Part shown: piece after piece, positions 8,601 through 11,600 of the stretch
How the letters are laid out: each line of letters begins with the position of its first letter
How positions within the stretch are numbered: position 1 is the first letter of the stretch
Assembly (NCBI RefSeq): GCF_044647545.1
Contig: NZ_CP172818.1
Reading direction: 5' to 3' (one strand)
Source: Escherichia coli
Lineage (GTDB): Bacteria; Pseudomonadota; Gammaproteobacteria; Enterobacterales; Enterobacteriaceae
Length of the DNA: 64,000 nucleotides
Program-made: the position numbers

Positions 8601-11600
8601 GATGGAGGAATTTCATTAACGGTGTATTACCGACGCTCGCCAGTTGCAAGGTGTCGATGCGTTGCTCTTGCAGGTATTTACTTGCGCCAAGTGCCAGCGT
8701 GTCGGTTGCGCACAGTAACGCAGTAGTTTCAGGCGTAATCACTTTTGCCACGTTCTCATAGCCTTGCTTCATAGCAAGCCCTGGCAGAGCGGCAACGGGA
8801 TGCAGTTTATGCGCTTTGCAGAACGCCAGGTAGGCTTCGTGACGTCGCTTACCGGTTGTCACGTCACTATGCGGCACGCCGAGATAACTGATATTACGAT
8901 GCCCCTGGTCATACAGCCGTTGCATCAGGATCTTGATTGCCCCTTCGTCGTCATAACAGACCGAAGCAAAGCCTTTTGCGTCACGCGCCAGCAGAACCAG
9001 CGATGACTGCCAGTGGGCTAACATTTCTTCTGTTATGCCAGTAAAACCGAACAGCACTACGCCGTCGATATTACGCCGTTTCAGCACCCCCAAATGTTCG
9101 GCAACTAATTGTGGGGAAAACTGACTTTCCATCATGATTGGGTCGTAACCTTGTTCATAGAACGCTGGCAGCATGGTTTGAACGGCGAGATTTTCTGACA
9201 ACGAATCCAGACGGGTAACAATGATGGCGACCACTTTATCGCTTTGCCCACGCATAGCGCGCGCAGAGCGGGAAGGGGAAAATCCATGCTGATTCATCAC
9301 TGCTTCAACACGCTCGCGGGTGCGCTGGCTCACGCCGCTTTCGTTATTCAGCACCCGGGAAACTGTAGATTTCCCCACGCCGCTTAAGCGTGCGATGTCT
9401 TTGATGGTCAGCCGATTTTGCATCCTGTTGTCCTGTAACGTGTTGTTTAATTATTTGAGCCTAACTTTACCCGTGCATTCAGCAATGGGTAAAGTCTGGT
9501 TTATCGTTGGTTTAGTTGCCAGCAGGTATTATATCGCCATAGATGCTACGAATATTATTGGATTCTCCTTATTATTTGCGGCGCTTTTTTCACTTACCGG
9601 AGGTTATATGGAACCTGATCCCACGCCTCTCCCTCGACGGAGATTAAAACTTTTCCGGTAAGCCCGTCTTTTCACGGCGTTACCGGATGCGTAAGGCCGT
9701 GACGTTTTAACGTCCCTGCTCAGCTTTATTACCTTCAGGTAAGGCTTCGCCACGCCTGAAGACATTTCTGTACTGTTTCAGACAGTGCGGAGGGACTCCT
9801 TATGTTTAAAGAAATTTTTACCCGGCTCATTCGCCATTTACCTTCCCGTCTGGTTCATCGCGATCCATTGCCTGGCGCGCAGCAGACAGTGAATACGGCG
9901 GTCCCGCCGTCCTTAAGTGCGCATTGCCTGAAAATGGCGGTGATGCCCGAAGAAGAATTATGGAAAACGTTCGACACCCATCCGGAAGGGTTAAATCAGG
10001 CGGAAGTGGAATCTGCCCGCGAACAACATGGTGAAAATAAATTACCCGCACAACAACCGTCGCCGTGGTGGGTACATTTATGGGTCTGCTATCGCAACCC
10101 ATTTAATATTTTACTCACCATTCTCGGCGCTATTTCTTACGCCACGGAAGATTTATTTGCCGCGGGCGTTATCGCGCTAATGGTCGCTATTTCTACGTTG
10201 CTGAACTTTATTCAGGAAGCACGTTCCACTAAAGCGGCAGATGCCCTGAAAGCGATGGTCAGCAATACTGCGACGGTGCTGCGCGTAATTAACGACAAAG
10301 GCGAAAATGGCTGGCTGGAGATCCCGATCGACCAGCTGGTGCCCGGCGATATTATAAAACTGGCGGCGGGGGATATGATCCCGGCAGATTTACGTATCTT
10401 GCAGGCGCGGGATCTGTTCGTCGCTCAGGCGTCGTTAACCGGTGAGTCTCTGCCCGTAGAAAAAGCAGCTACCACTCGCCAGCCGGAGCACAGCAATCCG
10501 CTGGAGTGCGACACCCTGTGTTTTATGGGCACCACCGTGGTGAGCGGCACGGCACAAGCAATGGTGATTGCTACAGGTGCCAATACCTGGTTTGGTCAAC
10601 TGGCGGGGCGTGTTAGTGAGCAGGAAAGCGAGCCGAATGCCTTTCAGCAAGGGATCAGCCGCGTCAGTATGCTGCTGATTCGCTTTATGCTGGTGATGGC
10701 TCCGGTGGTGCTGTTAATCAATGGTTACACCAAAGGCGACTGGTGGGAAGCGGCACTGTTTGCGCTTTCGGTCGCGGTAGGCTTAACGCCGGAAATGTTG
10801 CCGATGATTGTTACCTCGACGCTGGCGCGCGGCGCAGTAAAGCTGTCGAAACAGAAAGTGATCGTCAAACATCTGGATGCTATTCAGAACTTTGGCGCAA
10901 TGGATATTCTGTGCACTGATAAAACTGGCACCCTGACACAGGACAAAATTGTGCTGGAGAATCATACCGATATCTCCGGTAAAACCAGCGAACGCGTGCT
11001 GCATAGCGCGTGGTTGAACAGTCATTATCAGACCGGACTTAAAAACCTGCTCGATACAGCGGTGCTCGAAGGTACGGATGAAGAGTCAGCGCGCTCGCTG
11101 GCCAGTCGTTGGCAAAAAATCGATGAGATTCCGTTTGATTTCGAGCGTCGCCGGATGTCGGTGGTAGTGGCAGAAAATACCGAGCACCATCAGCTGGTTT
11201 GCAAAGGTGCATTGCAGGAAATCCTCAATGTGTGTTCGCAGGTGCGTCACAATGGCGAGATTGTGCCGCTCGATGACATCATGCTGCGTAAGATTAAGCG
11301 GGTTACTGATACGCTGAATCGTCAGGGGCTGCGCGTGGTTGCGGTGGCGACGAAATACCTGCCAGCGCGTGAAGGAGATTACCAGCGGGCGGATGAATCC
11401 GACCTGATCCTCGAAGGATATATTGCTTTCCTTGATCCGCCAAAAGAGACAACTGCTCCGGCACTGAAGGCATTAAAAGCGAGTGGAATTACCGTAAAAA
11501 TCCTTACTGGCGACAGTGAGTTAGTTGCAGCGAAAGTGTGCCATGAAGTGGGGCTGGACGCGGGAGAGGTGGTCATTGGTAGTGATATTGAAACGCTATC

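Follow-up and report, generated by a model that had tools for sequence, protein, structure and literature searches.

The region described here, at positions 9498-9801 of the window, the whole 64,000-nucleotide stretch of contig NZ_CP172818.1 that was analysed, corresponds to the Escherichia coli intergenic region between treR and mgtA. It is very probably the native regulatory region of E. coli mgtL-mgtA, controlled by PhoP and responding to Mg2+ at two levels, and the sequence holds nothing contrary to its identification as an mgtL-mgtA leader. RefSeq annotation lists mgtL and mgtA at homologous positions, mgtL having the same position and the same product. The regulated gene is intact downstream of the leader, and its product scores 1607.5 bits against the TIGR01524 equivalog HMM (cut-off 610.75), covering profile positions 4-867 of 867. 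The genes and promoter elements are the following:

8476-9423, (-) strand: treR, a 315-aa ORF and the divergent upstream neighbour bounding the intergenic region; named treR in matching RefSeq records.
9498-9514, (+) strand: PhoP box, direct repeat GGTTTA (9498-9503)-TCGTT-GGTTTA (9509-9514), sequence GGTTTATCGTTGGTTTA.
9527-9532, (+) strand: -10 hexamer TATTAT, separated by 12 nt from the end of the PhoP box (9514).
9538-9801, (+) strand: mgtA 5' leader, its start placed according to the Salmonella architecture; predicted fold -87.3 kcal/mol.
9802-12498, (+) strand: mgtA, ATG at 9802, an 898-aa ORF for a Mg2+-importing P-type ATPase; the regulated gene, annotated mgtA.

The promoter has the layout of PhoP-activated architecture I, with a single direct-orientation (T/G)GTTTA-N5-(T/G)GTTTA box and a 12-nt gap to the -10 hexamer. 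Only one exact match to KGTTTA-N5-KGTTTA exists in the 64-kb window, at 9498-9514; dinucleotide shuffles give an expectation of 0.02 matches, with any match at all in 2 of 100 shuffles. When 52 orthologous promoters are aligned, the half-sites of the box are nearly invariant and TATnAT is invariant or nearly so at the -10 position. The first-pass annotation had reported an intact PhoP direct repeat and a -10 hexamer, and both are found, the repeat as an exact match on the (+) strand and the hexamer exactly 12 nt past it. A sigma-70 scan of 9300-9900 detects no complete -35/-10 promoter. This is no argument against a promoter here, as a -35 hexamer is not part of PhoP-activated promoters; in the activator-dependent promoter of PhoP-box/12-nt/-10 architecture, the box overlaps the -35 position (PMC3335776). 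In the first layer of control, low external Mg2+ or other cues would act through PhoQ to place phosphorylated PhoP on 9498-9514, where PhoP bound to the direct repeat would stand in for the -35 element and activate transcription from TATTAT. Induction of mgtA in E. coli is lost on deletion of phoP or phoQ (PMC5740661).

The transcription start is positioned by comparison with Salmonella mgtA, in which the box lies 12 nt from the -10 hexamer, the distance from -10 to +1 is 7 nt and the leader is 264 nt long (PMC3335776). If this spacing holds, +1 would fall at 9538-9540, which is consistent with a leader of ~264 nt. The leader length of ~264 nt given earlier fits the Salmonella architecture, while the start at about 9538, and hence the exact figure of 264 nt, rests on the literature. 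The predicted fold of 9538-9801 has a z-score of -4.27 relative to shuffles. Within the leader, the following elements make up the proposed switch:

9593-9708, (+) strand: match to Rfam RF01056 (Magnesium-II / Mg2+-responsive RNA element), 125.8 bits, E 5.5e-25.
9593-9662, (+) strand: stem-loop A, a three-way junction of the OFF conformer, from the minimum-free-energy fold.
9599-9603, (+) strand: mgtL Shine-Dalgarno GGAGG, within the left arm of stem A and paired inside that stem, 4 nt upstream of the ATG.
9608-9661, (+) strand: mgtL, 17 codons and a stop, with proline codons 3, 5, 7 and 9 and an acidic EPDP motif.
9654-9687, (+) strand: stem-loop C, the ON conformer, formed by the A right arm UCCGGUAA and the B left arm UUACCGGA; it excludes A and B.
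9663-9671, (+) strand: pyrimidine-rich A-B spacer CCCGUCUUU, a candidate Rho-loading (rut) segment in the interior of C.
9672-9702, (+) strand: stem-loop B of the OFF conformer, -16.5 kcal/mol alone.
9701-9714, (+) strand: small hairpin GACGUU-UU-AACGUC directly after B, 85.8% paired, with compensatory changes at 4 of 6 pairs.

The RF01056 match, for which the gathering score is 40, spans model positions 1-115 of 115 and ends 94 nt upstream of mgtA; it presents the stem A three-way junction followed by stem B and lies in the leader of a gene for a Mg2+ transporter. The leader lies far beyond chance because the match is full-length, at 125.8 bits and an E-value of 5.5e-25. Stem-loop A consists of an outer helix (9593-9603/9652-9662) and two inner hairpins (9610-9612/9619-9621 and 9628-9632/9639-9643); among 53 sequences, 96% of its cells are paired and 7 of the 11 outer pairs are invariant, and RNAalifold recovers the stem independently. 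Stem B is 97.7% paired in orthologues, with compensatory double changes at 6 of 10 pairs, and RNAalifold recovers 12 of its pairs. Stem-loop C has a predicted energy of -18.6 kcal/mol alone and is 88.5% paired in orthologues. Its core never varies among them, which makes the covariation test on helix C uninformative, neither supporting nor refuting this helix. The predicted fold also contains a 5' hairpin at 9545-9582, which at 56-65% paired is poorly conserved in orthologues and is left out of the mechanism.

Of 5,426 complete E. coli genomes, 5,425 carry the region, 4,185 of them with at least 99% identity. Many independent E. coli genomes match a 378-bp stretch at 100%, and the leader by itself occurs unchanged in many lineages. 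Relative to K-12 MG1655 (mgtL-mgtA, b4702/b4242), the leader at 9538-9801 shows 0 differences, there is no base change in mgtL or the PhoP box, and the gene order, with treR divergent from mgtL-mgtA-ridA-pyrI-pyrB, is the same. MG1655 differs only at two intergenic SNPs, at 9466 (T here, G in K-12) and 9519 (C here, T in K-12). Both are upstream of the transcript, and 9519 lies in the spacer that separates the PhoP box from the -10 hexamer. Nothing else could be cited for the view that the elements look alike by chance or that this strain carries a decayed copy without function, and these SNPs leave the -10 hexamer and both half-sites of the box untouched. With the RF01056 E-value, an exact PhoP box against an expectation of 0.02, a K-12-identical leader, the 378-bp identity across many genomes and an intact mgtA, this reading is already refuted and its probability is negligible. 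For the window as a whole, colinearity and identity with its top match, O157:H7 PV15-279, were ruled out by 105 mismatches in 8,378 bases.

The earlier description of the locus as a known system and positive control is borne out by the K-12-identical transcribed leader and the RF01056 match. The mgtL-mgtA control region here is an already known, well-studied system and an ordinary positive control, a copy with no departure from the reference, and the comparative numbers restate known principles. In E. coli this locus is the model case of a two-component system coupled to a leader-peptide/RNA switch, by which cytoplasmic Mg2+ is monitored via ribosome stability. The main value of the analysis is calibration, in that a textbook multi-layer regulatory region is recognised from raw sequence with exact coordinates.

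The leader ORF has the features of an mgtL-type element: it is short, lies within stem-loop A and has a Shine-Dalgarno sequence of its own, four proline codons and an acidic N-terminal (E/D)P(D/E)P motif. Translation of 9608-9661 yields the intact 17-codon, proline-rich MgtL that had been read previously, preceded by GGAGG at 9599-9603, which is invariant among 53 sequences. The MgtL orthologues are 15-17 aa long, vary in their C-terminal half and all end in Arg-stop. In mgtL this Arg-stop sits inside the invariant switch sequence CCGGTAA (CCGGUAA in the RNA). Relative to the switch, the position of the ORF, its Shine-Dalgarno sequence and its stop is conserved in 52 of 52 orthologues; conservation of the N-terminal motif is circular and not used as evidence, since MgtL N-terminal codons were the criterion of the orthologue scan. 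Three chance matches in the contig pattern scan (L026 from Nonomuraea, L028 from Opitutaceae and L048 from Actinacidiphila) have ORFs well beyond 17 codons and were excluded.

The minimum-free-energy fold of the leader holds A (9593-9662) together with B (9672-9702). The sequence CCGGUAA (9655-9661) can pair with UUACCGG at 9594-9600 to give A or with UUACCGG at 9680-9686 to give C, and the alternative hairpins anticipated on folding the leader, A+B and C, were both obtained. Over 9593-9708, forced A+B has an energy of -38.8 kcal/mol vs -35.3 kcal/mol for forced C, a gap of 3.5 kcal/mol. Across 53 sequences the forced conformers differ by 0.7 +/- 2.6 kcal/mol and are thus near-isoenergetic. 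In constraint folding, C forms when 9596-9640 is blocked (the 5' half of mgtL, mimicking a stalled ribosome) and likewise when the left arm of A is blocked; B is kept when the mgtL stop region, 9645-9672, is blocked. For a nascent transcript with its 3' end at 9687-9695 the minimum-free-energy fold is C, and it changes to A+B once 9702 has emerged. In thermodynamic prediction, the part of mgtL that is occupied would decide between A+B and C, as in mgtL-type leaders. These conformers, together with mgtL, have been described for the E. coli leader (PMC11552253).

In the proposed second layer of control, the ~264-nt leader would set whether RNA polymerase reaches mgtA. With ample Mg2+ and prolyl-tRNA, the ribosome would complete mgtL and cover the right arm of A, allowing B to form; the pyrimidine-rich flanks would then be exposed and transcription would end before mgtA. 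At low Mg2+, with 70S ribosomes destabilised, or at low proline, the ribosome would stall or drop off in the MEPDPTP codons. The right arm of A would then be free to pair with the left arm of B as C, which would block B and permit read-through into mgtA. In MG1655, ribosome drop-off driven by EPDP at low Mg2+ controls mgtA (PMC11282234; bioRxiv 10.1101/2021.02.02.429294). The best-documented signal path in E. coli is this Mg2+-dependent ribosome destabilisation at the MgtL EPDP motif, not proline supply alone (PMC11282234; bioRxiv 10.1101/2021.02.02.429294).

Direct RNA sensing of Mg2+ vs sensing via mgtL translation is debated (PMC11552253). The leader could instead be a direct Mg2+-binding riboswitch in which Mg2+ stabilises A+B, with mgtL dispensable for the Mg2+ response and reporting only proline or osmotic stress. 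Rfam curates RF01056 as a Mg2+ riboswitch aptamer, Mg2+-dependent folding alone sufficed to modulate Rho termination of the Salmonella leader in vitro (PMC11552253), and the conformers are near-isoenergetic, so that a small effect of a ligand could shift the equilibrium. However, the MgtL E2Q/D4N substitutions abolish mgtA reporter expression in MG1655, and EttA and bL31, both acting on the ribosome, alter mgtA expression (both PMC11552253; PMC11282234; bioRxiv 10.1101/2021.02.02.429294). The conserved placement of the mgtL ORF, Shine-Dalgarno sequence and stop in all 52 orthologues, among which the N-terminal motif was the search criterion, also argues against a dispensable mgtL. Direct sensing is on this evidence unlikely, and sensing through mgtL translation is the preferred reading.

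Four known systems resemble this leader to differing degrees. The Salmonella enterica mgtA leader shares the PhoP box core and spacer (Salmonella box TGGTTTATCGTTGGTTTAA), the 12-nt distance to the -10 hexamer and the ~264-nt leader (PMC3335776), as well as membership of the RF01056 family and the switch sequences CUUACCGG, CCGGUAAG and UUACCGG. It differs in its -10 hexamer (TATGAT vs TATTAT here) and in MgtL, which reads MDPEPTPLPRWR(V/I)FLFR in the Salmonella subspecies retrieved. The corA leader of E. coli and Salmonella, likened here by description, has a three-way junction A with the corL uORF, a rut-flanked B and an alternative C (PMC11552253), but it precedes a different gene, is not under PhoP control and its corL has one proline. 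In the Salmonella mgtCBR leader, a short proline-codon-rich ORF (mgtP) likewise governs read-through to a Mg2+ transporter and there is no intrinsic terminator (PMC3641672), whereas its sequence is unrelated, it carries tandem ATP and proline attenuators and it is absent from E. coli. The M-box (ykoK, Firmicutes/Actinobacteria) likewise precedes Mg2+ transporter genes as a leader that responds to Mg2+, but it belongs to another RNA family with another fold, and the Rfam scan of the window gives no M-box match. M-box RNAs bind multiple ions directly and classically use an intrinsic terminator.

No intrinsic terminator is found in the leader (9538-9801), the sole terminator-like match in 9300-9900 being at 9376-9392, inside treR. 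The leader thus lacks the intrinsic terminator hairpin and U-tract of a classical (trp-type) attenuator; it works like an attenuator yet stands outside the intrinsic-terminator class (cf. PMC3641672). The first-pass annotation had called Mg2+/proline-responsive attenuation probably functional. The words 'probably functional' are justified, because the leader does not differ from the K-12 sequence on which experiments have been made; the refinements are that it is no attenuator in the classical sense and that proline supply is not the only signal.

Termination by Rho is the form of the OFF state described for the Salmonella leader. The 30-nt windows from 9650, 9700 and 9710, which flank B, are 67% pyrimidine, a composition that alone defines no rut site. 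In the homologous corA/mgtA leaders pyrimidine-rich rut regions flank stem B, and by analogy with that description 9663-9671 is a candidate rut segment (PMC11552253). Rho dependence has been demonstrated for the Salmonella mgtA leader (PMC11552253) but is contested for E. coli (PMC5499598). A Rho-terminator model has been used for the MG1655 mgtA leader (PMC11282234) and Term-seq counts mgtA among the 5' UTRs whose 3' ends were ascribed to Rho (PMC7815308), while the ChIP termination score of E. coli mgtA in Rho R66S is 1.0 (PMC5499598; restated in PMC11552253). Published evidence that Rho terminates transcription in the E. coli leader is thus inconsistent (PMC5499598 vs PMC11282234). At the 3' end of the leader lie the following elements:

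9733-9761, (+) strand: 3'-domain hairpin 1, from the minimum-free-energy fold; helices 4 and 5 are 74-94% paired in orthologues, with 6 pairs double-changed.
9768-9790, (+) strand: 3'-domain hairpin 2, directly adjoining the ribosome-binding site of mgtA; 84% paired, with compensatory changes at 7 of 10 pairs.
9789-9794, (+) strand: mgtA Shine-Dalgarno GGAGGG; the conserved GUCCCU at 9712-9717 is a possible pairing partner of 9791-9796.

The OFF state in E. coli might instead be independent of Rho, with GUCCCU occluding the mgtA ribosome-binding site followed by mRNA decay, or with a Rho-independent arrest of the polymerase. The R66S score of 1.0 is compatible with this, as RNA polymerase occupancy still falls along mgtA (PMC5499598), and so is a leader that has no intrinsic terminator. 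The minimum-free-energy fold moreover contains the long-range helix 9712-9717/9791-9796 over part of the Shine-Dalgarno sequence, with both strands conserved and 91.7% paired. According to the authors of the ChIP study, however, R66S may simply leave this terminator unaffected (PMC5499598). In later E. coli work, failed mgtL translation raised the transcript of an mgtA leader fusion, which was interpreted in terms of Rho-dependent termination (PMC11282234), and the Term-seq attribution of the mgtA 5' UTR ends to Rho (PMC7815308) points the same way. The long-range helix itself shows covariation no higher than shuffles among orthologues, and no computed fold links it to the A/B-C switch. A Rho-independent OFF state accordingly has a low probability, and the preferred reading keeps an OFF state in which the pyrimidine-rich flanks of B would be exposed and transcription would end before mgtA.

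As a separate matter, the nearly invariant GUCCCUG at 9712-9718 may serve as an anti-Shine-Dalgarno sequence on AGGGAC at 9791-9796, closing the whole 3' domain, although as a prediction from folding this role is quite improbable. The support for it extends as far as conserved pairing potential. If true, mgtA would also be controlled at the level of translation, and through it of mRNA decay, which could explain the apparent insensitivity of mgtA repression in E. coli to Rho R66S.

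The sequence, its translation and a pattern scan place all four items named in the first-pass annotation (a PhoP direct repeat, a -10 hexamer, a leader of about 264 nt and mgtL) where that annotation had put them. The elements of the region are listed below.

Features of the mgtA leader region and its predicted RNA structure
8476-9423 (-), 315-aa ORF, treR
9424-9801, intergenic region between the two flanking ORFs
9498-9514, PhoP box GGTTTA-TCGTT-GGTTTA (read from sequence)
9527-9532, -10 hexamer TATTAT, 12 nt past the PhoP box (read from sequence)
9593-9662, stem-loop A, a three-way junction that takes in the Shine-Dalgarno sequence and ATG of mgtL together with most of its ORF (predicted fold)
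9599-9603, GGAGG, mgtL Shine-Dalgarno sequence (read from sequence)
9608, ATG of mgtL, 18-codon frame with a 17-aa product (translation)
9672-9702, stem-loop B (predicted fold)
9733-9761 and 9768-9790, two hairpins of the 3' domain (predicted fold)
9802-12498 (+), 898-aa ORF, mgtA

Across the 64-kb window there is a single exact match to the PhoP-box consensus KGTTTA-N5-KGTTTA, versus 0.02 expected from shuffles; 2 of 100 shuffles contain at least one. Allowing one mismatch yields 2 matches versus 0.91 expected, and thus only the exact match is informative. Each testable defining feature of a PhoP architecture I promoter is present in the region. The Salmonella mgtA promoter has a single direct PhoP box 12 nt from the -10 (class II type) and is followed by a leader of 264 nt (PMC3335776), and E. 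coli mgtA is dependent on PhoQ/PhoP (PMC5740661).

When the whole window was scanned with Rfam, RF01056 (Magnesium-II, the enterobacterial Mg2+-responsive RNA element) matched over its full length at 9593-9708, scoring 125.8 bits (gathering score 40, E = 5.5e-25), and all testable defining features of RF01056 and the mgtL switch are found. TIGR01524, an NCBIfam equivalog with a cut-off of 610.75, identifies the downstream protein as MgtA with a full-length match of 1607.5 bits. Compared with K-12 MG1655 (mgtL at 4467431-4467484, mgtA from 4467625), window positions 9277-9877 carry six substitutions, none of which falls in the leader (9538-9801). In the intergenic region only two positions differ: 9466 has T where K-12 has G, and 9519, in the 12-nt spacer from the PhoP box to the -10 hexamer, has C where K-12 has T. 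The 378-bp intergenic region is present in 5,425 of 5,426 complete E. coli genomes, with 4,185 records at least 99% identical and 100% identity across many unrelated lineages. The RefSeq annotation beneath the match reads 'mgtA regulatory leader peptide MgtL', and in one of the matching records the gene order is treC-treB-treR <> mgtL-mgtA, with ridA-pyrI-pyrB next on the other strand. With high confidence, the element is none other than the E. coli reference mgtL-mgtA leader and is therefore already known, which bears out its designation as a known system and its use as a positive control. The original observation is confirmed and its interpretation supported with minor refinements.

Among the complete genomes, one lacks any match to the 378-nt query, three matches are located on plasmids, and in strain GCU-H1 (dolphin) the match covers only the first 120 nt, so that its leader appears to be broken off close to the start of transcription.

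The predicted fold of the 264-nt leader has a free energy of -87.3 kcal/mol (z = -4.27 relative to dinucleotide shuffles). The right arm of stem-loop A is UCCGGUAA (9654-9661), which spans the final mgtL codon and the stop, and the left arm of stem-loop B is its complement UUACCGGA (9680-9687); together these two segments form the mutually exclusive stem-loop C at -18.6 kcal/mol. When the conformers are forced on 9593-9708, A+B reaches -38.8 kcal/mol versus -35.3 kcal/mol for C. For nascent transcripts with a 3' end at 9687-9695 the minimum-free-energy fold is C, which is replaced by A+B once the transcript includes 9702. Blocking 9596-9640, which mimics a ribosome halted at the proline codons, leads to C, and blocking 9645-9672, which mimics a ribosome at the stop codon, retains B. 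In these models constraint folding reproduces the published switch logic. The alternative hairpins that the first-pass annotation expected from folding the leader are thus found as thermodynamic predictions.

Orthologues were collected by searching contigs representing one genome per species with a degenerate pattern that covers the nine opening codons of mgtL. This search returned 55 loci, 3 of which were discarded as chance matches, leaving 52 true orthologues from Escherichia, Salmonella, Citrobacter, Kosakonia, Leclercia, Atlantibacter, Pseudocitrobacter, Silvania, Superficieibacter, Franconibacter and other genera. Conservation of the N-terminal MgtL motif is circular because the search demanded it; conservation elsewhere is independent of the pattern. 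The peptides are 15-17 aa long with a freely varying C-terminal half, and all 52 end in Arg-stop, in most cases directly preceded by a Phe codon. This ending is dictated by the invariant CCGGTAA (usually TTCCGGTAA), which is itself the switch sequence.

Support for each helix across the aligned sequences
Helix A, outer part: 96% of cells paired, 7 of 11 pairs invariant
Helix B: 97.7% of cells paired, compensatory double changes in 6 of 10 pairs
Small hairpin 9701-9714: 85.8% of cells paired, 4 of 6 pairs compensatory
Helix C: 88.5% of cells paired, core without variation

The covariation score of A, B and the small hairpin is reached by none of 500 shuffles, and slid controls for these helices fall to 38-46% paired. 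RNAalifold finds A and B without a supplied structure, with compensatory changes in 9 of 26 pairs. Covariation is uninformative on C, as its core never varies. Forcing A versus C in the 53 sequences (the orthologues and the window) gives an energy difference of 0.7 +/- 2.6 kcal/mol. Judged from sequence and folding models, the three invariant copies of one palindrome-like segment of 7-8 nt and the conserved, near-isoenergetic conformers are as predicted for a two-state switch. A longer alignment shows invariant or almost invariant PhoP half-sites and TATnAT, along with many compensatory changes in the two 3' hairpins.

Several lineages vary upstream. Two Escherichia-clade genomes (loci L019, E. 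coli strain E69, and L029, E. whittamii) lack 12 nt at about 9563-9574, within a poorly conserved 5' leader hairpin, which shortens the distance from their PhoP box to the downstream mgtL ATG from 110 nt to 100 nt. Many Citrobacter species (L002, L006, L013, L015, L018, L022 and others) have the upstream half-site GGTATA instead of GGTTTA. In a group made up mostly of Kosakonia loci (L004, L009, L027, L041, L049-L051, L054), the 5' part of the leader is much shorter and an additional GGTTTA lies some 35-50 nt farther upstream.

The functional steps rest on published work with the identical K-12 sequence or the Salmonella homologue, and the present analysis supplies the anatomy. High Mg2+ favours A/B, whose A part holds mgtL, and low Mg2+ favours C (PMC11552253). 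At low Mg2+ the EPDP motif of MgtL destabilizes the ribosome and thereby raises mgtA expression, an effect modulated by EttA and bL31 (PMC11282234; bioRxiv 10.1101/2021.02.02.429294). In Salmonella, the mgtA coding region is induced when proline is limiting and under hyperosmotic stress (PMC3641672). We conclude with good confidence that the two-state mgtL-coupled switch operates here. No intrinsic terminator, the one feature by which a classical attenuator of that class was tested, was found in the mgtA leader, in line with published statements on this system. The terminating factor of the Salmonella leader is Rho. In E. coli, Rho R66S ChIP gave mgtA a termination score of 1.0 (PMC5499598); however, later E. 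coli work assumes a Rho-dependent terminator, in conflict with that result (PMC7815308; PMC11282234). We can only infer that Rho is the effector in E. coli.

Just past the switch, GUCCCUG (9712-9718) is nearly invariant in the 52 orthologues and can pair with AGGGAC (9791-9796) of the mgtA Shine-Dalgarno region, closing the leader 3' domain. This pairing is 91.7% paired across the orthologues, among which its covariation does not exceed shuffles; it is the only observation with potential residual novelty. The small hairpin GACGUU-UU-AACGUC (9701-9714), directly 3' of stem B, overlaps the base of B and GUCCCU and therefore may be a further competing element.

Elsewhere in the window, Rfam reports Ysr276 ('Yersinia sRNA 276') at 27377-27571 (+) with 184.6 bits against 100. 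The match lies wholly within the pepA coding sequence and probably reflects pepA conservation and not a separate sRNA gene. A tRNA-Leu(CAA) at 33512-33596 (+), presumably at the position expected of leuX, is followed by a variable island to about 38500, annotated in matching genomes with an integrase, a phosphoethanolamine transferase, IS4 insG and nanX; at least 80% of the 5-kb stretch past the tRNA is covered in only 506 of 5,426 genomes. This island contains a match to RF02003 (group II intron domains D1-D4) at 35388-35527 (-), with 66.3 bits against 49. It is probably an intron fragment, as its surroundings hold no long ORF of the size of a reverse transcriptase. The 1.5 kb around it includes a 'transposase domain-containing protein' annotated by RefSeq.
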